Below, piece by piece: positions 1 to 34,535 of a stretch of DNA of 64,000 nucleotides. The stretch covers positions 18,280,357 to 18,344,356 of the forward strand of contig OZ316892.1 in NCBI GenBank assembly GCA_973895155.1, in the 5' to 3' direction. The stretch comes from Marsupella aquatica. Its lineage: Eukaryota > Plantae > Marchantiophyta. Under the pieces are notes generated by a model. That model worked only from the letters and a program-made list of their open reading frames with translations. It was not told the DNA's origin and made no database searches. Made by a program: the position numbers and the translations under genes. How positions within the stretch are numbered: the stretch's first letter is position 1; every line of letters begins with the position of its first letter.

Positions 1-229
1 AATGCAAATAAACCAAACCCTAGCTGTTTGGAATTGTTCTTCAAATGTCAAATTTCGGGAGAGAAAAATAAAGAAGTGGAATAGATCAAGGTTTATCATT
101 ATCATACACGCCTGAATAATTTAGCAGGAACCAGGGATCTCCCTCTCGGTCTGTTCTAAGAAGAAATCTGACGGAGGTGATGATGATTCACTTGAGATTC
201 TTCAATGGTGCTATAATTTAATTACGCGC

Positions 230-1716
230 ATGTGTGTTCTGCCAAGTTTAGGGATGCAGTGTTTAGGGTTGGCTTCAAATCCCAGCTATGCAAATACTTG
301 CATTTCCCCGTCCCATCTGAAATGGCTTCGAAATATTGGATCGGAAAGACAATTTCACACGGTATCCAATCGGAGCAGGAGAGATTTACGTTTCAGTCGG
401 GCAGGGGCAGTGCGGGCCTCTGCAAATGGAGATCTTGGTGATGATTTCCAGGAAGCCATGGAAGCCATGGAAGTCCCACATACTCGTGGCATGGCCAGCT
501 CAAAAACGAAGGAGCAGCCTCGAGGGTCGTTGTGGAGAACCCGATCGGTCATCAGCAAGGAGACTGTTCAGGCTGTTCACGAGCTGAAGAGGAACAAGAA
601 TAACCCCGTTGAGCTTGCGAAGGTCTTTCAGACACGGATCCCTCGATTGCTGAAGATGGACCTACTCGCCACCCTTTCGGAACTACAGCGCCAGAACGAG
701 ATCGAACTAGCGCTTCAGGTCCCCCTCTTTCTCCCTTCTCTCTGAGGCCCACGCAGGTCCATTTGGATGTACTCATTCATTCTCTCTAGTGTTGAAAATT
801 GTCTCTCTATAGGGTATTTGGGTCCCTGTGGACTTTAATATTTCATCTATTCGTTCATTCTCTTTAGCCTTTTGCATAGTCACTCTACTCCCCAATTCTC
901 CGTCTGGACTATAAATTTGTCTCCACAGTTTTACACTTCCTCTCTTCGGCCTATTGTTCAGGTGGACCTTAAGTTCATGTAGAATTTCATTCTCTGTAGT
1001 TTTTGAACATTGTTGATCCAATGCAACGATTGGTTCATCGTGGGTATGAAATTCATTGGTACGGGGAATCATTCTCTCGGTAAACCTGTGTCTCTCTTCG
1101 TCTCTTGTTTGGTGACTTCCTCCAGGTCTGCCTTGAATTTCTGGTTTTTGGATGATCCTCCTATATTGTCAGCCCCTTGATTCTACTGCGCCCCCCTCCC
1201 CCCCAGACTCACCCTAAATTTATTGATTCTCTGAAGTTGGATTCTTTGAAACATATCCATATATAGGAACGCCAACCACTGTCGTCTTTGATGGTTAATG
1301 CTTGCAGTAACTGGATATCTGTTCTGCAGGTATTTGATATTGTGCGAAAGGAGATTTGGTACAAACCAGACCAATTTCTGTATCGAGCAATGATGGATGC
1401 ACTGGGAAGGAACCGTCGCATTCCCGAGCTGAAGAAGAAGTTTCTGGAGCTTCAAGATGAGGGCATCAAGCCTGAGGTGCCAATTTACCGAGAACTTGTG
1501 GGGGCTTATGTGCGGTCGCACATGCTGCCTGAGGCCGAGGAGGTGCATGCGAAGATGGTGGAGATTGGTTGTGGTGATGATCCTTTATCCCTCAAGTTTA
1601 TAGAGATTGGTAAAGAGAAAGAGGCTGTGAGGATAAAACAACGGAGAAAAGCTGCAGAGAAGCTAAGGGCTGAACAAGAGGAAGCAGAGAGTGCTCTCAC
1701 TGAAGTGCAAAGTTGA
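230..1716 (+). CDS. Short pentatricopeptide-repeat protein of the THA8/THA8-like family (probable organelle RNA splicing factor); exons 230-718 and 1330-1716
   Basis: Joining ORF 230..745 to ORF 1288..1716 through a GT(719)..AG(1329) intron gives RLLKMDLLATLSELQRQNEIELALQ|VFDIVRKEIWYKPDQFLYRAMMDALGRN, the typical THA8-family signature. The N-terminus looks like a transit peptide. Confidence 0.88.
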
Positions 1717-2840: not shown

Positions 2841-3719
2841 AGGATTGTAGTTGGGACCAAGGGTGTTATAGCGCTCCACTTGAGGTCCGACTGCATTTGA
2901 GAATTCTAGTGGGGACCAAATATTTTCGGGAGCTCTACTTGACGTCTACGTGCAAATTGCATTGAACAAGAGTTTATTGGTCTCGGCTCCCTCGGGTGCT
3001 CTCTAACTACAATCAGCTGCGGTCGCCTACAACAAGTGGTCTCTTCGTGTCCATGGCCAGACACATTCACTTAAGAGCGTCAGTATGTTTTTGTCCAAAC
3101 CTTTTGGTTTCAAATGGAGAATGACCAGACACATCGGGTTGATGAACCTTGGACGAGGACAAATTTCATTTGATAGCACAAACATCATTCAACAGTTCCT
3201 CCTCAATGGGCACAATTTTCAGGAACCTTAAACCAGGTCAAAAATGGTGTGAACACCTCTGCTATACGACATTTAATTTGCACCTAGTACCACAAGTGGA
3301 TCCGGTGCTCAAAATTGTGAAGGACAAAACATACGAGGTGCTCGGTCTCTGCCTCAGCTATATACACCCGGAGCTAGACATGGATGTTTCGAAATCTACA
3401 AGGCACCTCTGCCATTTCTCCTGTATGCGGATCAAAAACATTTCTGCACTCTCCTCCCTTGCTGGAAGAGGTCAGTGACAAACAGGACTGGGGGATGTCT
3501 CCTGCTTATCGTACACCTGGAAGTGTCATTCTGAACCAAGAGCCTGAATAGCCCACTGCTTCGATTGGAGACAATAGTATGATGTGAAACTCCAAAACCG
3601 GCAAAAATTGAGGCGGAGGAGGACCCACGATTTGATAAGCAGAAGCTACGACCAATCATCGTCCACAGATTCGATGTTCTTGCTACTTCTACACTGCTCT
3701 CTTGTTGTCCGCAACTCCA

Positions 3720-6700
3720 TTACGGTTTCCTTGAAATGAATGCAGTCACATATAAGTCTTCAAGAGGTGGAGTCTTCTTTGCTGCTAACGTCTTGAGGCA
3801 CTTATGGTAGGAAAAATCATCCTCAGTGCCATCGGTGCGCACCAGAAAAAAACACTTTGTCGGCCTGTCACTTGGCCTTGATGCTTTATACAACGCGACC
3901 TGTTTCAAGTGACATCGCCGCCAAGAATCAAAATCAATAACATTGGCAGATTACACGGTCATAGGCAGATTTCTTTCGGTCCGTCGACGTCCCTGGTTGC
4001 CTTAAAAACAGTCTCCTGAATTCAAAAGAAAGACGGACATTTTCAAGGTAAAGAAAGACGGGGACATGGACACTCCAATCAAATTCACATCCTTTCAGTC
4101 AAATTACCTTGAAGTAGTCCACCCCGCATCCAACCTTTGCCGCACAACTTGGATGATGCTGCAGAACTTGCGTCATAAGCATCTGATGGACCTCACCTTC
4201 CAATCTTTGTTCCGGCTCATAGCTGATATGAATGACAACAACCACGACTCATCAGAATAAATGCCTTCTGCACAAAGATCCTGTTGGCGAATGAGAAGCT
4301 GGCCTGAATCCTGGCCATATGTAAACTTTCTAAATGACCTAATCCTGGCCTGAATTTAGGAAACTCCTCGCCGGGATTAGATCAGTTACAAAGAGTCTCC
4401 GATTTAGGAGCCTTACGGATCGACATACAGCAGACAGCAGCATGATACTGGAAATCAATATGATAAACCAAGCATATCAAGCAAGTATTTGAAAACTTGT
4501 CCCACCAGTTACATAAAACAGTTCACAGATCTACCAACTTTAGTGTTAATACGAATACAATTTAGTCAGAATACGTACGTTTGAAGAACATTTCTCACAA
4601 AACGGACAGTTTCGACGATCTCTTCCCAATCCTTGGAATCTTTTCGATCGTCTAACCTCCTTGGGGTCATTCCATTACTAGCTCTCCCTAAACCATAACT
4701 CCCATTTCCATCTTTTTGCCAACCTCTGGGCGACCACCCACGGGTTCCTTCACTCCTGTGAACAGCTGGAGAATGGAGATTTCCAGCACTGGTTGGCCTG
4801 TCAAGAGGGGCCCAGCCTGAATCAGTTCCACCTTCTTGCACTGCTGTTAGAGTCCACCCATCAGAAGCCGGTTCAACATCATCCCAGCCTGATGTCGGGA
4901 TAGAACCCGGGTTTGATTCCTTATCTTCCCAACCCGACTCAGGTATTTCCCCACCTGTGCCACCATCACTGACTCCAACAACTAGAGAATCCAGGGACAT
5001 TGGAGCGGGTGATGCATTAACACTGTCAGAACCTGCACCCACAACCTTAGGCCCGAAATGTCTGATTTTTCCGAGCGGCATAGTATTCGCTCCAGTTGGC
5101 TTGAACACTCTTGGTTCATCTCTTCGTGACGGACGACCACTTGACTCCCTCCCCGACTTGTCGCGAAAAGAGTCGGGAGATTGCCCAATGTCACCATCAG
5201 ACCTTGGCATGTCCTCAGGAACACTAAACCAGGCTCCTGTTCCTCGTGCATCCGAAAGTGGTTCATCAATACCCCAACCATCAATTGCCACAGGATTTGC
5301 CTCCCATGCTATATCGTTGTTGTGCTCTTTATCGGTCGCAATGGCTGAGCCCCACCCATGCATTGCCTCTACCGTTGCTTGACCACTGGCAACAGGGACA
5401 GTCTCTAAAGTTTGTCCGTCAGCAGCATCCCAACCTCCAGCGCCTAAATCTTCTGCTGGTGCTGCATCAGCCCACCCACTTTCATCAACCGCAATCGGAG
5501 CTTCCCAACCTCCAGCCGTGTTCTTCACAGGGGAGTCAGCCCAACCATTTGCTTGACCTTGCGATGATGATCCACCCCACCCGCCTTCTTCTAGGTCTGT
5601 TCTATTGGCTGCGACTTCCGGTCCATTACCCCAATCTCCAGGACCTGCGGGAGATGTCATCCACTCTCCTCCACTTGCATTTGCAGCACCCCATTCATTC
5701 GGGTCTCTGTCAACATGGCCTTCATTTGCAGCAATTGGAGTCTCTGGGAACTCCTCCTTGATTTTACTGTTTAGGTTTCCTAAGAAGTCAAAGATATCCA
5801 CCGACTGCACGGGTAGCTGCGTGTTGTCCAATATTACCTGACAACCAAAGAACATAAAGCTGAGCAACTTACACAGAATGCCAAAGAAAGACAGATATAC
5901 GAGAGAGCAGAGGTTATATGATAGATCACCATCTGTTAGAATTCACTATCGACAGAAGTGCTGTTGACAATTGCTGCTAACGACCCAACCTGCTAAGTTG
6001 CTTTTATGCTACGTACCTTCGGTTGCAGTTGCAAACTGAAGTCTGCTCCGGTTCCAACCGGCACCCTCTTCCCAAAAATTGAAGATGCCAAAACTCCACT
6101 AAGAATCTCTTCGTCACCCTTCTCTCCAGCCTCCATAAAGGTCTTAATCGGTGCCTGATGATCCGAGACAGTTCGAAAGTCAGGAATAGCTCATCGTTTC
6201 GAACAGATGAAGCTCCGGCAACGTCCAGAACGCAGCCTCACATACAGGACATACAACGACATTCAGGTAGCGGAAGATACTTACTCGAAAAGCACCAGCT
6301 GTAAAAGGGGCGGACGTCTTAAGGCTTCGCATCAGATCTCTGTAGCCAAAAGGAGTGATCCCATTGACTTCGCCCGAATGTACCATCAGGTCCGACACCA
6401 GTTTTAAATGAGTACTACTTACGGAACTTCCTCCTGCTTTGGTGGCTAAGGTAAGCCTCTGATAACAAATGAATCAATATCCACATCAGTTTTCCTGAAT
6501 TTAGCTGCACTAAAAATCTACAAGCATTTGCCAAAGATGTACCCCATGCATATCCTCCATCAAAAAGTCCCAACGTTAGAATGATCACAAACCACATTTT
6601 CAGTTTCAATGAGTCCACCTGTAAGATACAATCACGGGCTGCTTCCACTCCAAGGGAATGTCGAACTTCCTGCGGACTGTACGGAGAACTTCTTTTCCAA

Positions 6701-9700
6701 TCTATACTGTCAATAAGAGCACATGCTTCTTTCATGATACTCCAAGGCGAGCCCCTGCTGGTACTGAGCTTTTCCTGAACAACGACTTCCACCACCAGCT
6801 CTCCATTCGGATTAGCCGGTATACGTTCACCATCATCTGAAAGTCCACACGGAGACCATGCAGCATCCTCCCAAACTAACTTAGCAGACTCAATGCGCTC
6901 ATCACCTGTCAGAACAATGAATTCATTAGTTTGATACACTACCAGGAAAACCGAAAGTTACCGATCATAGTAGACGAGTTTACTAGAGAGAAGTTCTTGA
7001 CCCGCAGAACAGACAAATCACTGAAGAAACAACCATCCCTTTGTTGAAAATTGCAAGCAGAAGAACTCCATGGCGAAGGATTGGTATTGAACAATTTGTA
7101 AGCACTCTTAAGTCAAGATATATCTGCTAGATCTGCAGAGAATACCGGTTGGGACATTATCCGCAGTATGAACCAACCATTCCACACTTACCCCCTGAGA
7201 CAGATAGCTAAAGAGCCACCACATGGACTCCAACAACAAGAGCCCTTTACATGTTTAGTGTGACATGAAGATGAACTCCATATTTGTGACACCAAAGAAC
7301 TGGATGAACGATTCCTTTCTCACACAAGAATCTAAAGAAGCTGAAGCCAACTTCCGAGCCAAGATAAAAAGGGTGTTAGAGTTTCCATTGTTCGTCAACA
7401 CGAGTACACGACTGGGCTCCTGCCCTCTGGAAAGGTAGTGTCATGTTTAGTGTGATGAGATGAAAAATTCTCACCGACATAAGTTGCCTACAAATGATAG
7501 ACCACTTCCAACTGAGAATATGTGCTAAAACATTACGGATCACCTGCTCACCTTTTACTGTAGTTTTGAGGATGAGTGGCATCATGACATCCCGCAATGC
7601 GTCCACAAATTCCAAAATTTTCTTGTTGGAACTTTTAGCCAACCTCTTCGAAGTTTTTTTGGATTTTAAAGTGGCCGAAAAATACAGACAGGGCCCAGAT
7701 TCATTGCTGATGCGTGCTCCCATGCAATTGCAACCAGCTCTGAAAAATACAACAAGACTGTAAACTTAGTACGCAAAGATAAGAGCATGGGAAACAATTT
7801 TACAGGCTTGGGTTGCAGCACGAAGAGTTTCTTCAACTTTATCAACTTCTCACCATTACATTCAGTTCAAACAAGTGCACGCTGATTTTTATTTCAGAGA
7901 AATCAGCTCCTAGTCTTGAGATTATTTTCCAATAGAAGAACAGGGCACGGGGCGAGGAGAAAACCGGCTGAAAAATATTGGATTTCCCAGGTAGTTACTG
8001 CCCATGATTTTGGAATAACTCTTGGTCTTGAATGCAGCCTCCAGCACACTCGCAACTCGCTCCATTTTTAGATTGATCTGAAATAGAGCTTTCTGCCGTT
8101 ATCGAAGAAGCGAGTTCGACATGTCAGAAAGATCAACAATAAATGAGGATAATGTCAATCTTCACCACGTTATTATTCAGTGATGATCACATATAAGGTT
8201 GGGGCCATCCTTACGACGATTAAAAATAGTCGGCATATTGCATCGTAGAGGAGTCAATGGACACAAACGTTGCATTGCCAATGCATACATCATTAAGGAA
8301 CAGTTTCTCACTTTATCGAACTGAATATGTCCCACCCAAGGTAGTCGCAGTTTCAACCCATCCGCGATGCATTGGCTCCATTCTGGGGAATTTTCTGGTA
8401 CGTATCTAATGTGACACGAATCCAACAATTAGACAACTGGACCTAGTGAACAAAAGCAAGGTTTTGCTTACAATCGGTATCAAAGAGTCTATACAATTAG
8501 GTCCGTCCAGCAATGATCTCTCTAGCATTGTCTACCTCCATAGCTAGCAGAGAATGACGACATCTACTTACGCCAAGGTCAACCTCGTCTACGGGAATTC
8601 GACACATTCCAAGTACTTGTAATAATACTACAACTATCACAAAAGCTTGCGGCCAAGGGAGAGGCACATACTCTATTGACATCGCTTTGGCGACCATGTC
8701 AATCGACACAGGTTGTAATTCATCTTGTATCCGTAAAGCACGCTTCTCTTCGCAGAAATTAGTATTGCATCGGCAAGGTTTCAGTCGAAGTATGTTACGA
8801 CGATCTGAAGCCTTCAACTTTCCACCGCTTCGGGGAAATATTGTATCCTGCAGTTAGGAAAGTAGATAAGCATAGTACATATGAAATGCCGAGATAACAA
8901 AATTCTACCTGTAACAGGCAAATGGGATGATTCAAGAATTTAACTACCTGTAAAAGTGCCAATGGGCGAATCTTCTTTGATCCAACGTTATGACCTGCGT
9001 CCATCATGACCTGGTAGGCAGGTTGAGCGATGGCGGTAGCAGCCAAAATTCCCACTGCTTCACCTGGCAGAACAGTCTCCTTCCCTGCTGTAGTATCGTC
9101 GGACTTTGACTTGTTGGCACCATCATACGAAAACTGAATAATCTCTAATCCACATTTATTTCGGACTGTTCCATCGTAAGCAACGTGAACGTCTCGTAGA
9201 AACAGCATGAGTTTCTTAAAGAGTTCTCCTGGCTCGGCTACCTCTACACTCTTTCGGAGCAAATCTGCCCTCACGGCTATCGAATGGACATAAAACTCCA
9301 ATGGATTCAAGCCATCAAGTAAGGAACTCCTGACTAGGCCTCGGGCCTCCCACCTTGCTTCACAGGACATTGAAGCTGCAAGACTGATCAGTTTTGCGTT
9401 ATCCGTTATATTTAACAGATGTTCGCTTTTGTCCAGCTGCAAGCCTAGACTCCCAATTTGCTGAAGGACCTTTGAAAGGGAACCCTTGCTACCAGAGCGA
9501 ACCATTGCTAACAACTGATTTTCGTCACTTATTTTCGATCCAAACTCTTCCCCAATCTCGGAGAATTGCTGTTGAAAAAATGCCACAGCAATATCTTCCA
9601 GACCTTCCGGATATTTTAGGTCTCCTGTGGATCCCATATCCATGTCTGATTGAATGGCATCTAGTTTTTGGAACTTCTCATCAAAAATGAGCTCCTTATT

Positions 9701-12700
9701 AACTGCCATGTTTTGGGAATAATTAACACTGTCCATCAGCTCTTCAATCATCGTTTTCCGTGACTTTTCATCAGGAGCCACATAGAAATCTTTTAAACTC
9801 ACACTAAACCCACGGGAAAGTAGCCACTCGCGTAACGCAGACTGAGAGCAATCCAAGTGACCCACTGCTGCATATGGACTGTACTGGGCAAGAGAACGCA
9901 TTAGTCCATTCGGATTAGTTAGCCAGTTCCTTCTACTGTATGACACCAATTCCCCGTCTCGGATGTCAACAGCACCATCATTACTGCTGATGGAGAAACC
10001 CTCCGGGATCGTCAGGTCAATGACCTGTTTGCCTGTCCACATGGGACCTCTTGCTGACTTCAAAATCGCAGGAATGGGGAATCTTCTTGTGCTCCAAATC
10101 GCCATTTGGTACATTTCCTCCTTGTTTAAAAAGACAGGAGAGGCAGTCAGCAAATGTGTGGCCAGAATATTATCTTGTGACATGCCTATTATGGTTTCCC
10201 CATCTGGTGAGGGCAAAAGCTGCTCCGGTAATATCATCAACTGGTGCAGCTCCGCTTTAGCCTCTTCAGACTGAGGTACGAAGACATGCAGGCAGTCACC
10301 ATCAAAATCGCCATGAAGAGGGGCACATACTGATGGGTTGATAGTAAAGACGCCGAGGTCCTGAATCTGTACCTTCAGAGCTAGCAGGGAATGCTTATGA
10401 AGCGAAGGGGGTCGATTAACATACACCAAATCTCCATCCTTGATATGACGATGGACAATATCGCCAATCTGGAGCCCATGGCTTGTTTTTCTGGTCACTT
10501 CTAATCGCTCTGATCCTCTGACCAGCCTCAAGGCTCCACAAGCCCTGTACCGTCCGAGAAGTGATTGTCCATTGTTTACATATTCCTGCAGCTTGTCGAT
10601 ATTCAACTTGTTTACCCGTTCAGGGATAGTCACGTGTTTTGCAATTTGCTGAGGAATTCCAATTTCCTCAACTCCTAGATAAGGATCACCAGTAACTACA
10701 TTTCGGGCCGAGTAACCACCTCGTTTCCCGAGCACATGTTTCTTCAGCCAGTCCAAACTCCATCTGCTATCCTTTTTCTGAACTCGGCCACCGTGATCTA
10801 TTCTTTTCTTTTCCTTCCCGGGAACAGCCTGCAGTCACCAACGATGGCCAGTTTAACAATCTCAGAAGTCCAATGAGCTGGACTGCAACTACCATATACG
10901 ATCACCTTCACCCATTTCAGGTCAGTCAAGGTCCGGCCCAAATTTCAATAAAGCATATACACCTAGATTGACATCAAAAGTGCAGTACAGGATACACAAG
11001 CTCATTCACCGAAAGCCATCTCGCAAATCTTCTGGCAAATTCCACAAAAACTGGCAAAGCTAACTTAGCTTTACGATGCAGGAGTGCTGATTATACACAA
11101 TCGAAAGGAAAGAGATCGAGAATCAGAAAATATCTCGGGATGTATTTCACCTTTGGGGCACCCTTTTCTCGGAGGTACTGTCCAAATAAGGACTGCAATG
11201 CGCTGCTCTCAATACTTGCAGCTTGGAACGATGGCTCGCCAAACCTCGACTTCCTAATCGCATTGATTTTGTTAAGGAGTTTGTTGAAGATCAATGTGGC
11301 TCGATCACTCTGCGATCCACAAACACGAGCGCATCACCCCGGACATCAGTTCGGTTACATAATTCATTCAATGCAGACCCGTCCTCAAGGAATTGTACGA
11401 AACACACGCTGCAGCATATCACACCTTACACGTGCTATTCAGCCTCAAGGACATTATGTGCTGATCACGACAATCATCAGGACAGTGTGAACGAAACAGA
11501 GCCTCTACAAAATCGATGCGAATCCTCTCAAAATGCAACTTCTACAATTCTATTTAGCATAGCCTGGTACAAGATCACTGGGTACAGTCTCCCAACAATC
11601 TGTTGGCAGTCCAAACTATTTAGTAACGCCAGGCCCTTCGTCATTGCTGGGCTACCTTGGTCCCATTCAAAGCGAAGCCAAGCCAGCATTAATTTCACTG
11701 TAATGACAAGCTCGGTGCACGGTCGTGAATTAACCAGCCAACTGGTAAAGACGCTTTGTGATCAGCTCTACTACAAACTTACCCCTTGCTTAAAGCTGAC
11801 GTTTGTGATGTCAAACACGTCGTCTCGTATTCTTGAGCAATTCGGAGGTACTGGCACGCACTCAAGAATGAGAGCTTCAGGGCGAGCCACTTCCGGATGC
11901 ATGCCGAGATTGGTCATAGCAGACTCCGGGACTTTCTTCAGTATTTTTAGGGCCTGAATTGCACTACACAAACATTAGCCCAATTCTTTGTACTGCCATC
12001 TCAATTTCATGTACACAGCAGATATTTAAAAAAAAACCAAGTAGTACTGGCCAATCGAATATAAACACGGCTAAGTTCCAGAAAAGTTTGATTTAATGAA
12101 AATTATGCCACCTGAACTTGTCCAACGATCACTGAAGAAAGAGGCGCACGCTTTTCCAGGAAGTGTTCAAAAGATCACCTCAAACGGTAGCAGAGATCGA
12201 GTCCTCTCAACACAGCTATCACTAGCGGAGACCTTTCCGTCCACAAAGCTCCAAAAGCCAGGGGCCACACTGTCAAGGTCATCATTTTTCTTGGTTTTAA
12301 TTTCCATTTTTATACCCTTAGACACGTGTTTCTCTTTGCCTTTCTCTATGACCTCCATCTTCAGTAGCACCTCTGGGTATCGATCGGGATGAGCACCCTA
12401 CAAAGCACAGCAGTGAATTACCTCAGCCACAGCGAAACAAGCTCAAAAACTTGGTATAAGTTTGCTCTAAGATAGAAACTGTGAAATCAGGGTAAGCTTT
12501 AGAATTGCTAGTATTTCTTACCGAACAGTACTTGCATCGTCCACGTCTAGACTTGGATTTTTGTACTACAGGCTTAGCATGACACACATCCACAATAGTT
12601 ACTCCGTTGGGCTGTGAACCTTTACCCTGCAATGGTCAGCCCGGACAGTGTCACAATTAGAGTTGACACTGGGTCATTGAAGGTGAGAGGACAGCATCAA

Positions 12701-14188
12701 CCAAGAACAAAAGGTAAAACAATAAACTTAAAACCACATTATGTTTACGAGGGACTGGTGTTCAGAATAGAGACATACTTTGTCGACCCTCTTCCTTTTT
12801 CCACTTGTAGCTACTGAGAGGGGGTTCCATGTTTCTGTATTATGAGTAAGGTCAATGACTGATGCCGCGGTGTTTGCAGAGGAATCCGTTGGGCTCTTCC
12901 TCTTTCGTAAGACTCGCCTGCCTGGACTATTCGGAGCATTCGAGGTCTCAGGCCCTTTCTCGTCATCGTCTCCATCACTTTGAACCCTCAGATGCTTACT
13001 GGAACTACTCGGGAAGCCCTCCTCGTCGTCAGAGGACAGTAAAATCACCACCTCCGATTCTTCTGCAGGCTTTTTACTAACGCGTGCTTCCTGTACACAA
13101 CCATGCCATCTGGACCCTCAAGAACTGTAATGCTCGAGGCATGAAAACATTCTTTCAGCATTGATTTAGATCCCGCGAACAAAAATCGGCTCCAGGTAAT
13201 GACCCTCGGGAGTTCACCTATGCAGTCGATTAACTAGCTAGAACTTATCAATATGAAGAAACCCATACCCCGTCAATGAACGTTTCTACAAGTTTTCGCT
13301 TCTTGTGCTTCGACGATAAGCGGCATTGAACATCATCTCCATCCTCGTTGTTGTCATCGTCTACCACTTGACGATGAGAATTCCTTGGACGCTGGGGTAG
13401 ATCTGTCACAGCCGAGATGTTCTCCTCCACTTCAACTTTAGGTGTCAAGGTTTCGTTTTGCTCCAACCGCTTCTTCAGACCTGGAGCCAAAAGAGAACTC
13501 AACTTCCCTGCTTTCTGCGTGTCACCGAAGATACAGTAAGTTGACTATGATGTCTCGGATTTCATGATAAGAACAAAGCACCATTTTTCCGAACATAAAT
13601 ACAGAGAATAAACAAGCGTCTTACCTTCTTCTTTGTCTGCCCACAGTTGAGACAGATCTTCCTCAATATTGCGATAAGTTTCCCTACATGATGGGGATGA
13701 AAGATTGGCGTCGTAAGGTTGCAGTGGGCAAAATGTCCTGCAATGTGGTAATGCCAGCCACCACACAACAACGTCAAATAAGTACAAAGGATTTTCAATG
13801 CTTCATTTGACACAAAGTAGTTGGGAAAACCTCATTTCCCAAAAATAGAGTTTAGTGATATACCCTGGCATTGATCGACTGTTTCGCCATTGCACGTCCC
13901 ACAAGGTCCCTTTGCAATTGGCTGCCCGAGTTTGGGATCATCGAGATCTTTCGTTTTTGTCAAAGGATTATCGGTCGCGTAAACCGAAAGCTTATACTGC
14001 AATACAATTCAAGAAAGGAAAACCTCTTCAGTTTAATGACAGAGACGGCAGAAGGAATGCAGGAAGCTCGACAAGAAAATCCAGGAAGGTCCTCTTACAA
14101 CATCGTCAGCTGTCATAAGCCCAAACTGAATGCCACATATTTTCGCCAGTGGCGGCTCCCCAGCACTGGGTATAAGATCCGTCTCCAT
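3720..14188 (-). CDS. Plant-specific RNA polymerase IV/V largest subunit (NRPD1/NRPE1 family), multi-exon, with GW/WG-rich CTD and terminal DeCL (DUF3223) domain
   Basis: Start METDLIPSAGEPPLAKICGIQFGL (14188-14099). Zn motifs CGTC..QCQGHF and CLNC..CKYC. Large exon 8948-10828 contains VNRPPSLH, metal-A site HGDFDGDCLH, a divergent bridge helix AEPGELFKKL and trigger-loop region PGEAVGILAATAIAQPAYQ. Later exons give GKRVPVGTG, the CTD (4579-5837) and DeCL (4108-4222 QHHPSCAAKVGCGVDYFK; 3720-3899 CFFLVRTDGTEDDFSYHKC). NRPD1 versus NRPE1 is unresolved, so no symbol is given. Confidence 0.95.
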
Positions 14189-16630
14189 TTTCGAAAGATA
14201 GCTTCAATGATAGCTGTTGCGGATGCTATAGCTGTAACACTACAACGGGAAAACGGGTCAGCTTCATAAACTAGCTAGAGAGTTCGAAGAACACTGAGCA
14301 AAAAAATCTTGGTCTGACTCTGTTCAAATACCACACACAGCCTCCCACGGCCTTATTAAACCCTACCGGCCTCAATGCGGAAGCACGCGTACTACTATTG
14401 CGAGATATCGAGATGGTAACTATTGCGAGTTGGCATTATATGAAGGATGGCACCAAAACCGGATACCGCAGGTATGTTCAGTGTTTGACAGGAATACCGA
14501 TTGCTTCGAGGATGATGGTAACCTTCATACGCAGGACCGCTTTTATCTGACACTGGCTTCTTGGAAATATCCCCCTAGCCTTATGTACACGAAGTTGATC
14601 TCGAAAGCAGCAGACAATGGTGCATAGACATACTTCGATTGTATTCTGGTGTCTTTAAACTTGCGGCCATGTTTATTCAAATTGTAAACCGGCTCAAAAT
14701 CTGGCTAGGACACCGAGAAACAGAACACAGAATTCCATCATCTATTCCGGAATGCCCTCTCCTTCCCGAAAAGAGCTCTAACTTCCTGACCGAAAAGATC
14801 TCCAACTTCCTGAATAGAGTACCTCAGAGTCCATGACAACCGTTCGTTCAGCAAAGAACACTGGGTGCCTTCTCGTCCGCTACTGACATGAACCAAACGG
14901 CTAAAGATAACGCGAAGACTTCGAATTCCCTACCCCTGCAACAACAACGAAGCTTTCCACACTCGCCAGTGACATCCGCAGCTGTAGTCACCACTCAAAA
15001 AGGTCCGAGTAGAATCATTGAACATCGACTAGTGACCGCGCATTAGAATTGCAAACCAACTTAGACTCCAATTCCGGAAAGAAATATGAAAACAGCAGAT
15101 GGCATCAAGTCCATAACTTACCGGACGCCTGAAAAAATTCCTCCCTGCCTCATCTCGAGCTAGACGCGACACTGCAGTAGCTCGCATTGTACGAGCTTGA
15201 TCGGCCAAGTCGAATTTCCCCACTTCTCTGCTCGTACTCCATTCTCTAATCGAGCAATCGCAAATCTCCCAGGCGAAGCTCCTCGTAAAGATTGGCGAGC
15301 TGGCTCCTCGGAGTTCAGTGCAATTTTCCCTCCAAAGATTTTCGTGACAGATCCGAGTCAAGACAGTGCAAGATCACGTCCCGGAACCGCGAGCGTGTGA
15401 ACTGCAGAGTTCAACCGGAATCAACCGAACCGCTCTATGTGACTTTCTATCTTAGAAGGTTTCTATCCAGCTGCCATCCCCGTCCTCGCCTTCTCCTGCC
15501 ACCCTCTTGTCTGCTCTACGATTTTGATATTAGTTTCTTGCCAGGCAAAATGAAGGCCAATTGATCAATCGGGCTCATATTCCAACGCAAGAATCCAACA
15601 ACCACAACCTCATCAAGGAAAAGCATCAAAATTTCTACGTCATAAAGGGATCGCCGCCAATGTCGCCTCACTCTACACTAGCCTTGTCCTCATTGGGTCT
15701 CAACGTAGTTCTTAAAACTACAGTAGCTCGACCGGTCCTGCAAACTACCGTAGACCCGAGTCTGACACTAATCCAAAGCAATCACTACTATTGGAGTCTT
15801 GGTTATAGTTTAGTGTCAGGAGCCGAATACGATCGAGCGCGCCAAAAGTCGACGGTCTACAGCAACGGTGGTATACAGTGAACAATGTTGAAGAATATTG
15901 CTGCAGTAATTTTCTGCTCGAGCACAAGATGCGAGGAGCCGATGCGAGGAGCGAGGATGAGACGTGATGCTCTCTAGCCGATTGTGGGAGAAGAAGTGCG
16001 AAAATTGTAGCAATCGAATCTTGAAGGCTTCTCTAGGAAATTGGAGTGCCCGAAATGGGCAACATGAAAGCAACTCTCTCAAAGATCACGCAGCTCTTCT
16101 TCAATCTACCTTCAATGCGGTCCACCAACTGCTTCACATGCATCCACTTGCCACTCTACCACAACAAATCATATCCTGAGATGCCAAGGTCAAGGCCAAG
16201 ACTCACATTCAAAGCGAAAGACACCACGCGCTGCATGGGGGCGGGGAAGAAAGGACTCAACACGAACACGACGAGAACATTTCTCCAATGCCCCACGGCC
16301 TCAACGACGTTCGCCTGGCGCCCCGCAGCAAACGATTTTTTGGGGGAAAGAATTTCAGCCACGACCCTGAGACGAACGACGCATGGACAGCGAAAGGATT
16401 GGCATTGAGTTACACCAGCTCAAAATTTGTGCGAGAAGCTCGAAGCAAGATCGAGCTCAATGTCGCACGAGTGTCTACACTCTCTCTCTCTCTCTCTTAG
16501 TCTCTCTGCTTGCTGACGAGCAAAGAGCGATGGGGCGTGATCAGGCGACGGTCGGCTCGACGGCGGGCAACGGCAACCGCAGCTCCTCCACTCTTGGGGA
16601 ACCATGGTTAGAGCACTTTCCTCACGACGG

Positions 16631-19800: not shown

Positions 19801-20106
19801 TCAAATCATTTTCCTTCCCCAGCTTCCAATTTTCTGTACTCTAACATTTTTTCAATGCTGAATTCCTCTCGAAATACTTCCTTGTCCATAGTACACTACC
19901 ATATACACTAATGTGTGACAGGACAGGCCAATTCAATATATCCCATTCCATATCTTCTAATTCTCGATTCAGTGAAATCTACTCCACAATGTTCACAAAA
20001 TTTTATATTATCTTTCCCATTTTCAATTCCTCCATATTTTCCGCAAATGCAAACTCCACTTACCCATGTGCACAAGAGGTCGTAGGTTCAATTCCTAGCC
20101 AGTCCT

Positions 20107-24124: not shown

Positions 24125-24625
24125 AAGGGTTACTGTAAGATTTCAGTTCAATGTACAGCTGATATGAATAACCTTTCTGAAGCTTGAGGAAGTCAAGAAT
24201 GATTCCCATTGCAACAGTCAAATATGAGTGTGAGCTTGCCGTACGTCAAGGCCAAGATTACTTTGAAAGTTACTGTAAGATTTCAGTTTAGATTGCAGCT
24301 GATATGAATAAAACTTTCCGGAGGTTGGAAACCGAGAGAATGACTCCCATTGGCACAAGTAAAATCTGCGTGGGAGATTGATGCATGGACCACTGGAATC
24401 ATTTGAGAAAAGTTGTAACGAAGTATATAATGAGAATGGGCACCATGTTGAATTCTTTGTGACAGTGGTAGACAGTGTACAGTGAACGTGTCAAATATGA
24501 GTGTGAGGTCGACGCATGGACCTCTGAAATCGTTTGACAAAAGTTACAACAAACTAAAATAATCAGAATGTCCACCATGTTGAATTCTTTATGAGAGTGG
24601 AAGACAGTATACAGTGTGAAAACAG
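24125..24625. repeat. Degenerate ~130-140-bp duplications overlapping the 3' end of the kinase-like gene
   Basis: gttactgtaagatttcagtt at ~24129 and ~24269; caccatgttgaattcttt.tga.agtgg.agacagt.tacagtg at ~24441 and ~24573; gtcaaatatgagtgtgag occurs twice. Confidence 0.75.
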
Positions 24626-27218
24626 TTCGGAATGGAAGAACAGTGATCTTGCAAAAAGCTCTCAACTTGGCCACTAAACCAAAGTAGGGCAAATTCAGGG
24701 AGTTGAGCATCTGCTAGCAAGATGAGAAGCTGCAGCCATCGCTCTATCCCTCCGGCTTTGTACCGCTCCCAACCCATCTCCGCAGGATACCGTTCGGAAT
24801 CGACTCCGAGTTCCACAAGTTGTTGATAGTACTCATCAAAGATCTGTCTTTCATTCTGTCTGCGGAATTTGATGGAGGTGTTGCTTATCATGAACTGCGC
24901 AAGCTCTGTGAATGGGCATCCCATCCCAACTTCGGACCAGTCCACCATGACAGCTTGGTCTTTGCTTTGGTCAGTCCTCCAAAGAATATTGCCTGCACAG
25001 AAGATCCATCCAGGTTTAGAGTCTATGAATGGGTCTTGCGCATTCTGCCTCTCTAGAACAATACATCAGTCACTAATGCTATCTCCACAACATAATTTCA
25101 CACAATTCTGCCCCCTTAGAACAATGCATCCAAGTCGTCCACGCTTTCTGCACAACATAATTTCACAGCATATCGTCTCTAATGAAGTATTGCTCAACTT
25201 GGTAACACATGAATTCTCCGTTCACAACAGTAGAAATGTAGGCTGAAAGCTCCCATAAGCTTTTTGGACCGAGTCCTTGACACCCCCTAGTAGTCCAAAA
25301 GACCACGACAGTAACACCCCCTACTAGTCCCAAGAAATAGAGAATGAAAGCTTCCTGTAAGCTTTTGGACTGCAACCCACACCCTGGTAGCCCCAACAGA
25401 CTACCCGGCCTTCGCACTTATGCTCGATAACATTTCCAATGAAACCCATTTGCTATCCACAATACTATGCAACCATCTCACTTATGCTTGACAGCACTCT
25501 CACCCAACATCATTTTTTATTGGCCCACTGCCCAACCATCTCACTTATGCTCGAGAACACTTCTACCCAAGATCACTTACTATTGACAATATTGGACTAG
25601 GACATAATTATACAGTGCTTTTGACCCGCCCTACAGTAGCAATCCTTGAAGCATCCCCACCCGTCTCAGGGAATGCCTCGCCAGCAGCAACTTTAGCGAG
25701 AGGTGCTCTCGCTAAAGCCCTTCTTCAATCCCCACAGTGCCATGAAAAATGGATTAACCCGGGCTCCAGTCCAGCCAGATTACGCCTACCATGCCCCAGA
25801 ACTGTCGAGTACCCAGCATGGAGTAGCAGCCCCCACCCAGTCTCCGAGCCAAAGTGTGTGGCAAGCACCTTTAATCATCAATTCTCTGCAGAAACTTCAC
25901 TGTATCCTCTTATAGGAGCTCCCCACTCCACTCATTCATCCTGTACAGAATATAGGTTATAGGTGGGTAACCATTTCTAGTCCACACTCCTATTCTCATA
26001 ATTTGGTACCCAAAGGAAGAAGTCCAATAAATTACCAGAAGAGAGAAGTTCAATGATCAATTACCCCCAGGAAGAAGTCCAGTGACAGTCACGGAGAGAG
26101 TAAAGGAATGGACACACTAAATTACCAGAAGAGAGAAGTTCAATGACAATTACCCAAAGGAAGAAGTCCAGTGACAGTCACACAGAAAGGAAAGGAAAGG
26201 AAAGGAAAGGAAAGGGTTTACCTGCGTGGAAATCGCCGTGGGTGAGAGTGAAGCAGCTCGCCGTCCTCTTCTCAGCTCCGAGACTCACGACGCCATTTTC
26301 TCGTTGCCACAGTCTCCAGTGAGTCGCGCGCAGCAAGCTCTCGACTGCCCGTCTCTGCAGCTTCGTGAAGACTTTGGCTCCCAAATCGCTGGAGATCAAT
26401 TCGACCCAGCGCGCACTCATATTCTCGAACGCCGCCTCCCAACTCCACCGCCCGTCGCCATTGCGCCACTTCACCCCTCGCATCCACTCCTCCTTCAGCA
26501 GCGACTCGTCCATCCAGAAGCGCGCGTGCACCTTCGCCATTTCGTGGAAGATCGTCCGCACAACCTCGAGCTCGGAGATGTGCTGCACCGATTCGGGTAA
26601 TGGCGTCGGTGGCGGCCCCCAGCATTGGTTTCCGAGCATCTGGCTCGCGGGCACGGCTTTCCCTGTGAGGTCTTCCATGACGATGACGAACGCTCCTGTG
26701 AGCAGCGAGCCGCGGCTGTGGTACACTTCCGGCAAGATGGAGGCGAAGATTGATTCGTGCCGCGGCGCGAATTCGTCGTAGAAGATGGCCTCTCGTGCGT
26801 TTTGGAGGTACTTGCTGTGGAAACGAGCTTCGAAGCTGGATTTCTCGCTCTTGACAATTAGAGATCGTGGAAATTGAGCTACGGGAGGAGATTCGTCCGG
26901 TTTAGGGCTTGTCTTCTCTTGTTGTTGTTGTGGCTCGTTCTCTGGAGAATACTGGATAATGATCTTGTAAATGAGCCCAACCAGGCCTCTGCCCGGCAAT
27001 GTCTCGGACGATCTTGTGATGGCGTCGATCGGCGGGGGAGAGCGTCCGAATTTGCTCTCCAGCAGGCGACGGACCCCGGCCAAGGTGGTCGGATTGTCTT
27101 CCTCCTTGCCGAGGACGCCGAGGCCGCGCATTGTGCGTGTGCACTGGCAGAAGAGGTACGAGAGAAGCGCCTGTAGCCAGATCCATAAGTTGAAAATCTC
27201 TGTCCCGTAGATCATCAT
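24589..27218 (-). CDS. APH / choline-kinase / ecdysteroid-kinase-like small-molecule phosphotransferase; exons 26222-27218 and 24589-24992
   Basis: The spliced product has a Gly-rich loop (GRGLVG), SLIVK, REAIFY, VIVMEDL, AKVHARFW, the Brenner motif LTHGDFHAG|NIL split by a GT-AG intron, and VMVDW (DFG equivalent). Confidence 0.85.
26020..26215. repeat. Intronic ~90-bp direct repeat plus (GGAAA)n microsatellite next to the kinase donor site
   Basis: aattaccagaagagagaagttcaatga...ggaagaagtccagtgacagtcac occurs twice; gaaaggaaaggaaagg run at ~26185-26213. Confidence 0.8.
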
Positions 27219-27579
27219 CTTGCGAGCACTGTCGACCGAAAGTGAATTCGAATTGAGCACCTTCTAATCGATAATAAGATCAAAAGACACGAGCAATGTA
27301 GCTCGATAGTTGTTACCCTCAAAATCAGTCGCGCTCAGCTGATTTTCCAATGCAGGACAATCCTTCTCAGCAGCTCATCCGTCTTCGATATCTTCAAGCA
27401 ACATGTAGCTAGTGGCCTCGATCAGCGAACAAACAATGCGGAAGTGGCTCGATTTCACTTTCACCGCCACCGGTTCTCCGTTGAAGTGCTTCAACGCTTT
27501 TGAAAGTTGGAATCAGCTCAAACCCGGCTACTACTCTACTCAATTCAGCTCCACAGTTCCGCAGAACGCGCGGCCTGAA

Positions 27580-31906: not shown

Positions 31907-34535
31907 TCAGTGTCTGCCGTTTAGTAAACGCTGCGTGAGAGATCCTGCAGTGAGCAAACAGAAATTTTCATTCAGTTGAATTGACCCAAGTGACGCAAGG
32001 GTTCACTGACATCAATCCTTCGACTTCCATGGAACGAGACAATCTCCTTCCTTTCAACTTCGAATTCATTCTGAGAATCAATTCGTAACCATTTAGGTTT
32101 GACAATTCACGTCGTTCTCACAGTCAAAAGTATCATGCAGCTCACTTTTTCCGCCAGACCATGCAGCAAACTCAAGCACACTTGAAATCTACAAGACAAG
32201 ACGAGATTGCGCTGTGGACAGGGAAACGACGAATGAATTGAAGAGAACATGAGAACAAACCTCCAACGCCGTCTGCCTGCCCCAATTGTGTGTGGAAGGC
32301 GGGACGGGCTTTCTGGATCTTTTCAGCCACCTCACCAATCACAAGTCGGGTCAATAGCAGTCCAGCCATAAGAGCTGCCGCCATGAGGAACAGAAACACA
32401 TAATCCCAGCTGAGCTCAGAGATATATCCTGTCAACAGGGGGCCGATAGCTGCCCCGACTGAGCCCGTGCCGTCAATGATAGCTGTAACAGTGGCAAGCG
32501 CCCGGGGATTCCCTCTCAGGGACGTGTGAGTTCCAAGATCTGCTGAAACCGCAGTTGTGATGAGGGCGTAAGGGCCATTCACCAGCATCCCCGCAATCAT
32601 CATGAGTGCAATGTTCACCGTGAAGGAAACACTCCCATAAATTCTGTACAAGTAGAGAGCCGGAATGGCAGCATACATGAATCCCGCAGCTATGATCGCA
32701 CGCGCATTCAATCTGTCCGAAAGATGACCGGCGAGAATGCCACCAATCACTCCCCCAACATCAAAGAGCGTGGAAAGTCTGCCAGCCGTTTTATCGTCCA
32801 GATAACCGCCGGCAATTTCTGCAAGAGTAGCCAAACAACAGTTTCTCTTCAGTATATAGACTCAAACAACACGAACCAGTGCTTAAATCCTGAATCTATT
32901 GCATCCAATTTGGCCCTCACTAAGGACCCTCACATCTTTTGAAATCTGTAGGGATAACGTCTCTACGGCGCCCTTAAAATTGGAATCGGAGGTAAGATTT
33001 GGGTAACATGGCATCACCTGCCGTGCAACTCAATCCTTGGCCTTCCACGAATCTAGCATTAATTTAAAGGCCCGGACTCAGAAATTCTTGAAAGTGCGGT
33101 CGAAACAAAGTACTTCTAATATATCGGGAAGAAGCGCATCTGCAAAAGGCTTAATAATTCGGAGTTTCCTGTCCTAGAAGAAATCCTCCGGTGACAACAA
33201 TCTAGAGAAGAATTACACAGCACGCAAGACTGCCACCAAAAAGATTTCAAGAGAAAGATCAATACTTGTCTGTGTGATGTAGAAAGGAAGCCAATTCAGG
33301 AATGTGTACGCCACCAGCTTGGCAAAGAACAGGCAGAAAGCGAAAGGGGCGACTCCAGGAATATTCCAAGCCTGCACGAAACCAACAGCCCCATGATGAA
33401 TTGGCGAGTCCTCCTCCTGTTCCTCGGTCCTCTGCAAAAGTCCGCTCTCTTCGTCCGCTCTACCTGTATCTGCACCGTTCACACCTTGGGTGCTGACTTC
33501 AAGACCAGGCTCTGGATCATCCTTCACCAGTCCAGCCTCTTCGTCGCGCTTCTCCAAGAATCCAACCGAATCTGCAATTCTGGGAGGAATAGAGTTGTGT
33601 TCCTTCGCAGAATCCTCGTGAACGACAAGGCCCACATCCGCCGGCTCTACCACCAGGAAAAAAAACATGAGAAACCCTCCAGCAACTTGGAGCAGTCCAG
33701 GGAGGAGGAATGACCATCCCCAACCATAAGCAAGCCCTGCAGCTGCCAAAAGCGACCCTGTAATGTTCCCAACTGAGGTGTGAGCATTCCAGACACCCAT
33801 GATCAACCCTCTGTGCCCTTTCCCGAACCATTTCCCGACAATGGACACCACTGAGGGCCATCCTGTCGACTGCAGCACCCCGGCCAACATTTGCACCCCC
33901 AGGAAATAGTAGATGGAATGAATGTTAAACCAGTATCCGAATCCAAACATACACACAAAAAAACCGCTCCCAACCATCCCCAATGTGAGGAAGTACCGCA
34001 AGTCGAGCCTGTCTCCCAGCTGGCCGGCAAAATACATTCCAACGGCGTACGACGCTAGAAAGGAAAGATCGACATCGCCTAGCAAACCCTTCCCTCCCTT
34101 CTCGTTGAAAGGAGCCCATCCTGCCAACGACCCTGCCCCAGAACCAGACGCGGATGATCCATTCTCGGCTTGGAACCTCGTGCCATGCACCCGATCATAG
34201 TACCAGTGGCCGTGGTGAGATTCGTTAGCACTCGACTGCCTTGTAACGAGGTGATTGACAGGTAAGAATGGATACAAGGCGACATGAGTTGTTCCATTGA
34301 GTCCAGCGGCATTATTATCATAATCGACGTCGTCGAGCACACTCTTGACAATGCTGAAAGGTTTCCGCGAAGCGTGGTAACATGCATATGCAATGAAGGT
34401 CATGAACAGGACGGAGTATTTGTACGTGTTGAGGCTCGCGTCCTTGCCTCTAAGTCTTCTAATCACCCGAACGCCGATGGGCGGGCCTCTCTTCACGGCA
34501 CCATCGTCCTCTGGAAGGACCAAAGGCGGAATCAT
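31907..34535 (-). CDS. Glycerol-3-phosphate permease (G3Pp) / SLC37-like sugar-phosphate exchanger, MFS; exons 33266-34535, 32261-32818 and probably 31907-31944
   Basis: Motifs [86 protein letters not shown] and [13 protein letters not shown]. The short last exon ([12 protein letters not shown]) is less certain. Confidence 0.95.

Follow-up and report, generated by a model that had tools for sequence, protein, structure and literature searches.

The 64,000-nucleotide stretch of Marsupella aquatica DNA analysed here (the window; contig OZ316892.1) carries a gene that probably belongs to the bryophyte NRPE1 group and encodes the largest subunit of RNA polymerase V (Pol V) of this leafy liverwort, as an ordinary member of that group and not as a hybrid enzyme. 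An earlier note had described it as a Pol IV/V subunit of mixed identity, with the N-terminus and active site of NRPD1 and the tail of NRPE1. This impression arose because markers diagnostic in angiosperms were applied to a liverwort protein in which ancestral features have been kept. Since the combination of a CKYC-type motif with an Argonaute-hook tail has already been published for bryophyte NRPE1, the gene is likely to be an ordinary one.

The gene lies on the minus strand, from an ATG at 14188 to a stop codon ending at 3720, both ends having been verified. Its 20 exons, joined across 19 GT-AG introns, give a single open frame of 2055 amino acids (aa; Table 1). Over its full length the protein is 69.7% identical to protein P0001 of Calypogeia fissa. 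One spliced contig of a relative matches exons 1-18 in depth and ends at 4579, so that it is uninformative on exons 19-20. A possible small exon near 4015 was left out of the model, since homologues align without it.

Table 1. Location of the gene and of its features within the window.
Feature	Position	Strand	Remark
Coding region, probable NRPE1 (Pol V largest subunit), intact	3720..14188	-	20 exons, 2055 aa
Exons 1-5	14188-14099, 13996-13864, 13737-13625, 13514-13269, 13090-12779	-	
Exons 6-10	12626-12522, 12397-12179, 11953-11783, 11309-11151, 10828-8948	-	
Exons 11-15	8847-8672, 8405-8312, 8092-7965, 7739-7552, 6905-6619	-	
Exons 16-20	6458-6285, 6154-6017, 5837-4579, 4222-4108, 3899-3720	-	
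Domain A, exons 1-3	13625..14188	-	cysteine clusters CGTC (aa 62-65), CQGHF (aa 73-77), CLNC (aa 103-106)
Low-complexity insert, 222 aa (aa 107-328)	12537..13642	-	between halves of predicted clamp-head zinc site
SUMO-interaction-like motif VVILLSSDDEE (aa 208-218)	13019..13051	-	function predicted only
Second SUMO-interaction-like motif VIDLT (aa 272-276)	12845..12859	-	similar in C. fissa and MpNRPE1a
CKYC box (aa 329-332)	12525..12536	-	likely zinc ligands of clamp head (predicted)
YPEVLL (aa 340-345)	12362..12379	-	YP kept, no YPxxxF
Catalytic core, exon 10	8948..10828	-	Pfam Rpb1 domains 2, 3, 4, 5
Metal A motif DFDGD, exon 10	10309-10295	-	
Funnel segment (aa 855-965), 111 aa	9482..9814	-	
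Acidic, Gly-rich tail, exon 18	4579..5837	-	15 GW/WG/GWG hooks; predicted Argonaute-binding platform
DeCL (DUF3223), exons 19-20 with stop codon	3720..4222	-	E 7.8e-8 and 3.1e-11

In the domain A alignment, C99 and C102 of the moss paralogue were invariant (42/42 rows). The clamp-head insert that follows measures 222 aa in the window protein vs about 20-84 aa in those angiosperm sequences whose insert could be delimited. The matching insert of the moss paralogue P0150 is disordered (pLDDT <50) in the AlphaFold model of that paralogue, which is not a model of the window protein, and Foldseek searches with it returned only polymerase matches of low TM score. The splice 12522->12397, which had been proposed to bring CKYCS before YPEVLL, proved exact: removal of the intron 12521-12398 joins CKYCS to GAHPDRYPEVLL, and at the same junction the C. 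fissa orthologue reads CKYCSGAHSDRYPELLL. The C[KR]YC box is present and YPxxxF after it is absent, the protein having YPEVLL; this corresponds to the shortened CYC-YP without F that was published for bryophyte NRPE1. A CxxC..[YF]P arrangement was common to 17/19 non-angiosperm NRPE1, including lycophytes, ferns and gymnosperms, and the sixth-position F was found in none of these 17. In this regard, the bryophyte NRPE1 table of Felgines et al. (2024) already lists the CxxC-YP motif alongside hooks, with 12 hooks, CLYC and FPEVQL for MpNRPE1a and with CKYC and YPKPDI for MpNRPE1b. The zinc role of the CKYC-type box in AtNRPD1 is a prediction by Felgines et al., who also found YPxxxF to be required for CLSY docking in Arabidopsis. 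CKYC..YP is likely to be the second half of the clamp-head zinc site, already present in the NRPD1/NRPE1 ancestor.

The catalytic motifs RPPSLH, WTG and GEL that had been noted before are all in exon 10, together with GDFDGDCLHV. They do not make the protein NRPD1-type, as had been supposed for both its N-terminus and its active site, given that the motifs concerned are common to non-flowering NRPE1 and in part to Pol II, and that the F of YPxxxF is missing. The G preceding DFDGD occurs in 4/27 NRPE1 rows, the orthologues of the window protein having A, and WTGKQ and GEL are also found in Pol II. The marks of the Pol II subunit NRPB1 were absent from the protein, which has 0 heptads and reads HGDFDGDCLH vs NADFDGDEMN. 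The foot between domains F and G is deleted (77 aa vs 251-255 over the same span of two RPB1). The funnel, of 111 aa, can be compared with 111-118 aa in seed-plant NRPD1 and 56-84 aa in seed-plant NRPE1; it is also long in other bryophyte NRPE1 (94-134) and in fern NRPE1 (119-122), and reaches 126-132 aa in liverwort and moss NRPD1, the tips of which differ in sequence from that of the window protein. Seed-plant NRPE1 has the short funnel of the Arabidopsis structure, in which the Pol IV tip insertion is missing and which reportedly keeps RDR2 out; neither the window protein nor fern NRPE1 has this short form.

It had also been claimed that exon 18 holds 15 Trp next to Gly and that DeCL follows, which was confirmed: 15 of its 19 Trp adjoin Gly (10 GW, 2 WG, 3 GWG), and DUF3223 was recognised in exons 19-20. 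These hooks form a GW/WG platform, 15 in 451 aa, between domain H and DeCL. When the tail of the window protein was shuffled, 15 hooks were reached in 1/100,000 cases (mean 4.7), and in its 1012-aa core none of the 13 Trp adjoins Gly. All 11 bryophyte NRPE1 rows have hooks, which occur in 0/6 bryophyte NRPD1 rows with a tail (three more are without one). The C-terminus carries DeCL in place of heptad repeats, as in Pol IV/V largest subunits.

In the maximum likelihood (ML) tree (66 rows, 1073 columns, LG+G4), the window protein was sister to P0001 (100/100), within a liverwort NRPE1 clade (100/100) and the bryophyte NRPE1 (98/98), and outside the 27-row NRPD1 clade (98/96). A C20 tree of 29 rows gave supports of 100/100, 97/94 and 90/95, the last for the union of bryophyte and vascular NRPD1. 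In unrooted trees NRPD1 stood apart from all NRPE1 rows. In trees rooted on Pol II, a distant outgroup with no full-length plant NRPB1 and no algal sequence, NRPE1 was paraphyletic and bryophyte NRPE1 joined NRPD1 (98/97 with LG+G4; 74/66 with C20). Rooted trees of Huang et al. likewise give paraphyletic NRPE1, and in You et al. bryophyte genes could not be assigned to the NRPD1 or NRPE1 clade. AU tests were run under two models on nine fixed trees, arranged by hand and not optimised under constraint; the placement of the window protein as a liverwort NRPD1 was rejected (p=3e-40 and 3e-5), and NRPE1 monophyly of all land plants was not (p=0.31 and 0.38). Partition trees put the protein with liverwort NRPE1 in 3/3 cases. 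Its core identity was 85% to P0001 and 62% to MpNRPE1a, compared with 38% to the C. fissa NRPD1 paralogue and 39% to MpNRPD1 of Marchantia; its best angiosperm matches were NRPD1 (~36%). In both liverwort species pairs, all 11 segments of the protein were closer to the NRPE1 paralogue, and therefore it is no chimera. Sites diagnostic of vascular NRPD1 vs NRPE1 numbered only 4 and 9, the window protein scoring 0 vs 1 and 3 vs 2, so that these counts did not clearly place it with either. Of 18 extra fragments that were placed, a plant NRPB1 fragment went with RPB1 and the other 17 with NRPD1/NRPE1 clades already known from land plants; thus the trees had no row recognisable as algal or hornwort, and a Selaginella NRPE1 homologue search aimed at such rows gave one match.

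The window protein is the leafy-liverwort counterpart of MpNRPE1a (Mapoly0004s0120; bryoNRPE1a of Felgines et al., 2024), to whose clade it belongs and with which it shares CxYC plus [YF]PEV, the GW/WG tail, DeCL and a long N-terminal insert with a SIM-like motif. The two differ in CKYC/YPEVLL vs CLYC/FPEVQL, in G vs A before DFDGD, in the number of hooks (15 vs 12) and in length (2055 vs 2258 aa), the window protein being without an extension past DeCL. The unnamed C. fissa P0001, its sister in every tree, has CKYCSGAH..RYPE, 12 hooks and DeCL; the window protein has a tail about 90 aa longer, and the two are not the same gene. Arabidopsis and Brassica NRPE1 (PDB 8hyj, 8him), to which the orthologue gave its best sequence matches in the PDB, share DFDGD, the foot deletion, the hook tail and DeCL, whereas in angiosperm NRPE1 loss of YP, and frequently of CxYC as well, goes with a short funnel and no long clamp-head insert. 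Arabidopsis NRPD1 (PDB 7eu0, 8xmb) and bryophyte NRPD1 share the C[KR]YC box, YP, funnel length and DeCL, but the window protein departs from them in its lack of YPxxxF, its long hook tail and its position outside their clade. According to its published description, the charophyte NRPD/E1 (Chakraborty et al., 2024) also combines hooks and DeCL with a Pol IV/V-type core; it is single-copy and without C[KR]YC.

The earlier note had left a choice between a Pol IV with an Argonaute hook and a Pol V-type subunit with a kept motif. It is the second half that stands, as the ML tree places the protein with NRPE1 and the motif survey shows that bryophyte NRPE1 routinely carry CxxC-YP, findings which that note had itself named as contrary to its proposal. 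It is extremely improbable that the gene is a chimera of NRPD1 and NRPE1, or an NRPD1 in which an Argonaute hook was acquired or retained. The CKYC box, the G before DFDGD, WTG and GEL do resemble angiosperm NRPD1, and the best angiosperm matches are NRPD1, but the active-site residues have the wider distribution given above, T6, T7 and T8 were rejected by AU under both models, and neither liverwort pair had a segment nearer to its NRPD1 paralogue; the ML tree, AU tests and segment comparison together refute this proposal. We regard as very unlikely that the gene, although Pol V-like, is not orthologous to vascular NRPE1 but a bryophyte-specific sister of bryophyte NRPD1, with a separate Pol IV/V division in bryophytes. 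Such a history would agree with the distinct bryophyte cluster in Felgines et al. and with the paraphyly of NRPE1 in rooted trees, as in Huang et al., and T3, in which all bryophyte paralogues form one clade sister to vascular NRPD1, was not rejected (AU 0.12 and 0.07). However, T3 was 14-16 log units worse, T4 (fully independent duplication) was rejected (0.038, 0.031), ML trees unite bryophyte and vascular NRPD1 (98/96; 90/95), extra losses of genes and tails would be required, and the methods of the Felgines preprint name neighbour joining for trees.

Also unlikely is an ancestral-type, incompletely specialised Pol V that would engage Argonaute, RDR1/2 via the long funnel and CLSY/DRD1 at the clamp head, making some siRNA precursors in addition to scaffolds. 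The retained CKYC..YP is consistent with it, as are the 111-aa funnel, long in bryophyte and fern NRPE1 and short in seed-plant NRPE1, the algae with a single hook-bearing polymerase proposed for both jobs, and the fern and lycophyte 24-nt siRNA abundance that tracked NRPE1 detection (You et al.). Against this, the NRPD1 that liverworts and mosses carry as a distinct gene has no hooks, a longer funnel (126-132) and a tip sequence of its own, YPxxxF is absent from the window protein, funnel length alone is no proof of binding, and siRNA production is reportedly driven by moss NRPD1. The separate NRPD1 of liverworts also counts against the claim that RdDM architecture differs here from that of flowering plants, for which only the long funnel leaves room. 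It is similarly unlikely that liverworts, mosses and ferns have a partly dual-function Pol V of ancestral type, with an RDR-contacting funnel, a remodeller-docking clamp head and access to chromatin through a SUMO-binding insert motif lost in seed-plant Pol V.

The conserved VVILLSSDDEE-type motif lies within the probably disordered clamp-head insert and was present in 10/11 bryophyte and 3/3 fern NRPE1. It was named, like VIDLT, for its resemblance to the SUMO-interaction consensus. Our literature search found no published report of a SUMO-interaction-like motif in the NRPE1 clamp-head insert, and a preprint on RBR/LxCxE had no bearing on it. Taken alone, a function of this motif in SUMO interaction may be tentatively entertained; it is more likely than a dual-function Pol V and less far-reaching.

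If the gene is an ordinary NRPE1, the subunit is predicted to make non-coding scaffold RNA. Judging from Arabidopsis, DFDGD would bind the catalytic metal, the GW/WG tail would hold siRNA-loaded Argonaute, its hooks binding an AGO4-clade protein, DeCL would be needed for methylation, and siRNA precursors would be made by the separate hook-free NRPD1. Both paralogues of non-flowering plants would have retained CKYC..YP; in NRPD1 it would have grown into YPxxxF, and in angiosperm NRPE1 it would have decayed.

With this gene, one leafy-liverwort NRPE1 is added to the described group, and CxxC..YP is seen to be no marker of Pol IV beyond the flowering plants. Should the two side leads, the long funnel and the SUMO-interaction-like motif, be borne out, cheap tests in Marchantia could address if an RDR is still a partner of early Pol V and if SUMO contributes to Pol V targeting, and insight may be gained into how Pol IV and Pol V split their work. 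Should Pol V be dual-function in these plants, the RdDM of liverworts, mosses and ferns would be wired unlike that of flowering plants.

The window gene, modelled with the closest database protein as template, is intact: it comprises 20 exons separated by 19 introns, each with GT-AG ends, and its open frame of 2055 amino acids (aa) carries the catalytic motif, a hook tail and the DeCL (DUF3223) domain, and falls in the bryophyte clade of NRPE1, the Pol V largest subunit. In a full-length alignment with P0001, the NRPE1-type protein of Calypogeia fissa, the value was 69.7%; at the CKYC junction the window protein reads CKYCS followed by GAHPDRYPEVLL, and P0001 reads CKYCSGAHSDRYPELLL. Pfam assigned exon 10 to Rpb1 domains 2-5 and exons 19 and 20 to DUF3223. 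From domain H to DeCL the tail spans 451 aa and has 19 Trp, 15 of them beside Gly (predicted Argonaute-binding hooks), a number reached in 1 of 100,000 tail shuffles; none of the 13 Trp of the core lies beside Gly. The CKYC splice join, GW/WG tail and DeCL described in the earlier note were thus borne out by the gene model, the P0001 alignment, Pfam and the shuffles.

Features located in the window
Feature	Positions	Strand	Remark
NRPE1 gene	14188-3720	-	
VVILLSSDDEE in clamp-head insert	13051-13019	-	
Second SUMO-interaction-like motif	12859-12845	-	
Funnel segment	9814-9482	-	111 aa
Gene with PPR repeat in 3' exon	125-1716	+	NRPE1 stop lies about 2 kb beyond its end, on the opposite strand
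rpoC1 (plastid RNA polymerase beta') N-terminus, short fragment	19908-20087	-	E 8e-18; likely plastid DNA inserted into the nucleus
Ecdysteroid-kinase-like (EcKL/DUF1679) gene	24589-27263	-	
MFS transporter gene	32172-34625	-	presumably resembles glycerol-3-phosphate permease
Glycoside hydrolase family 5 exon	61004-62023	+	

Although none of the runs was registered as RNA, sequencing run X1, from a related organism, gave a 6792-base contig in which introns are skipped at the modelled sites; it is an assembled contig from a relative and not a single molecule of Marsupella aquatica. For 26 of the 30 bins, its depth and the model's exonic bases differed by no more than about 5%. The mismatches were the two DeCL bins (the contig terminates at 4579), one partially covered bin and the 5' end. 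That the CKYC and GW exons share one transcript is supported in part: the bin spanning the CKYC exon and its successor (30.1 expected, 30.1 observed) and the hook exon bin both match, but the support at CKYC is bin depth, its splice joint being absent among the joints listed. In the DNA runs X2-X4, diverged contigs (<95% alike) covered parts of the gene within 3500-14400, some with joints; they represent an allele, a paralogue or a co-sampled relative.

Exon 10 was most similar to P0001 (85%), MpNRPE1a of Marchantia polymorpha (62%), Riccia proteins and MpNRPE1b (55-60%) and moss NRPE1 (42-44%), and less to paralogues of NRPD1, the Pol IV largest subunit (MpNRPD1, 39%; second C. fissa protein, 38%), a ranking that makes a leafy liverwort the likely source. 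A maximum-likelihood tree (LG+G4) was built from a chosen set of 66 core sequences, which excluded most of the redundant matches from angiosperms and RPB1. It grouped the window protein with P0001 (100/100), within a liverwort clade containing MpNRPE1a/b (100/100) and the bryophyte NRPE1 clade (98/98); all 27 NRPD1 rows formed a separate clade (98/96). A subset of 29 rows, analysed under the C20 mixture model, gave the same result (97/94; NRPD1, 90/95).

The earlier note had proposed a mixed identity, with an NRPD1-type N-terminus and active site. These marks proved to be common property. Of 19 NRPE1 rows from plants other than angiosperms, 17 show CxxC followed by [YF]P (bryophyte 8/10, lycophyte 2/2, fern 3/3, gymnosperm 4/4), and in none is the sixth position F; Ephedra NRPE1 combines CKYC..YPPFK with 17 hooks, and among eight angiosperm NRPE1 rows CxYC is kept in four and YP in one. 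The first box cysteine and two domain-A cysteines are invariant in all 42 aligned rows, RPB1 among them, which fits the zinc site predicted for NRPD1 by Felgines et al. NRPPSLHKHS is the same in liverwort NRPD1 and NRPE1, WTGKQ and GEL also occur in RPB1, and the G preceding DFDGD is found in 4 of 27 NRPE1 rows and is absent from the closest orthologues. With the tree placement and a motif commonly kept in bryophyte NRPE1, the mixed reading gives way to an NRPE1 assignment. Riccia fluitans NRPD1 (P0009, aa 292-315) has CRYC..YPKLKF and so provides a liverwort example of the complete CYC-YPxF motif, which was absent from all 12 bryophyte proteins examined by Felgines et al.

The two paralogues are sharply distinguished by their hooks (11/11 bryophyte NRPE1 rows versus 0/6 bryophyte NRPD1 tails). 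The NRPD1 proteins of C. fissa (P0012) and Ceratodon (P0018) have hook-free tails of 443 and 314 aa before DeCL, so tail length by itself is no NRPE1 mark. Four proteins of the fern NRPE1 clade (P0013, P0017, P0126, P0139) end 11-19 aa past domain H, without hooks or DeCL, in agreement with the tail loss reported in the accessible text of You et al. (PMC5569507).

The NRPE1 paralogue was nearer to the window protein than NRPD1 in 11/11 segments for both the C. fissa and Marchantia pairs, and in 9/11 for the moss pair (one tie, one reversal); all three partition trees placed the window protein with liverwort NRPE1. Judged by these sequence comparisons, it is not a chimera of NRPD1 and NRPE1. 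Among nine fixed trees, the AU test rejected those that made the window protein the sister lineage to liverwort NRPD1 (3e-40, 3e-5), that placed liverwort NRPE1 next to liverwort NRPD1 (0.0005, 0.002) or that placed bryophyte NRPE1 next to its vascular NRPD1 counterparts (0.002, 0.003). It did not reject NRPE1 monophyly (0.31, 0.38) or all bryophyte paralogues as one clade sister to vascular NRPD1 (0.12, 0.07). Rooted on RPB1, a distant outgroup, and with no algal or hornwort row recognised in the trees, NRPE1 was paraphyletic, bryophyte NRPE1 joining NRPD1 (98/97, LG+G4; 74/66, C20). In the portions available, Huang et al. (2015) also describe NRPE1 as non-monophyletic, with assignment by the WG/GW tail (PMC4476159), and You et al. 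(2017) describe bryophyte genes as not assignable (PMC5569507).

A 222-aa insert divides the predicted zinc site of the window protein; AlphaFold modelled the corresponding insert of a moss paralogue as disordered. The window protein's insert carries VVILLSSDDEE, which resembles a phospho-regulated SUMO-interacting motif (SIM). A SIM-like pattern, composed after the motif was seen, matched NRPE1 inserts in bryophytes (10/11), ferns (3/3), lycophytes (1/2) and gymnosperms (0/4), and NRPD1 in 2/6, 0/3, 1/2 and 1/4, respectively, one further NRPD1 being unscorable; the match rate was 1-9% for shuffled inserts with a length of at least roughly 60 aa. Since the rows are related by descent and the pattern is post hoc, the motif is a lead only. 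Literature searches at the level of listings found no report of it in the NRPE1 insert, which supplementary figures of Felgines et al. may describe. That non-seed-plant Pol V is partly dual-function and SUMO-recruited seems to us quite improbable.

Funnel lengths in NRPD1 were 111-118 aa (seed plants) and 126-132 aa (bryophytes), and in NRPE1 94-134 aa (bryophytes), 119-122 aa (three ferns, a fourth being incomplete) and 56-84 aa (seed plants); that of RPB1 was 94 aa. At 111 aa, the funnel segment of the window protein equals that of seed-plant NRPD1 in length; shortened funnels are confined, in these rows, to NRPE1 of seed plants and Selaginella. The paper on the Pol V structure, in its accessible part, attributes the lack of RDR2 binding to an absent funnel-tip insertion (10.1101/2023.04.30.538882). 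Given the long bryophyte and fern NRPE1 funnels, this explanation may not be transferable to those groups, length not being equivalent to binding.

The window protein is of a known kind, a bryophyte NRPE1 retaining the ancestral clamp-head motif. Such a combination has been published before: in Supplementary Data 1 of Felgines et al., MpNRPE1a is entered as having CLYC, FPEVQL and 12 hooks, and a pine NRPE1 as having CRYC. The single algal ancestor, as presented in the available text of Chakraborty et al. (2024; PMC11194755), resembles the window protein in having hooks and DeCL and differs in lacking C[KR]YC.

By analogy with Arabidopsis, Pol V would produce chromatin-bound RNA and the hooks would hold AGO4-siRNA (PMC4476159, in part); DeCL, needed at nearly all loci in that plant according to the accessible text of 10.1101/111831, would be similarly required. 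A literature search found no Marchantia NRPE1 mutant studies; the dependence of moss siRNA on Pol IV is cited in the available part of Rymen et al. (PMC7714444). The siRNA precursors would derive from a separate NRPD1, like that present in C. fissa, Marchantia and Riccia.
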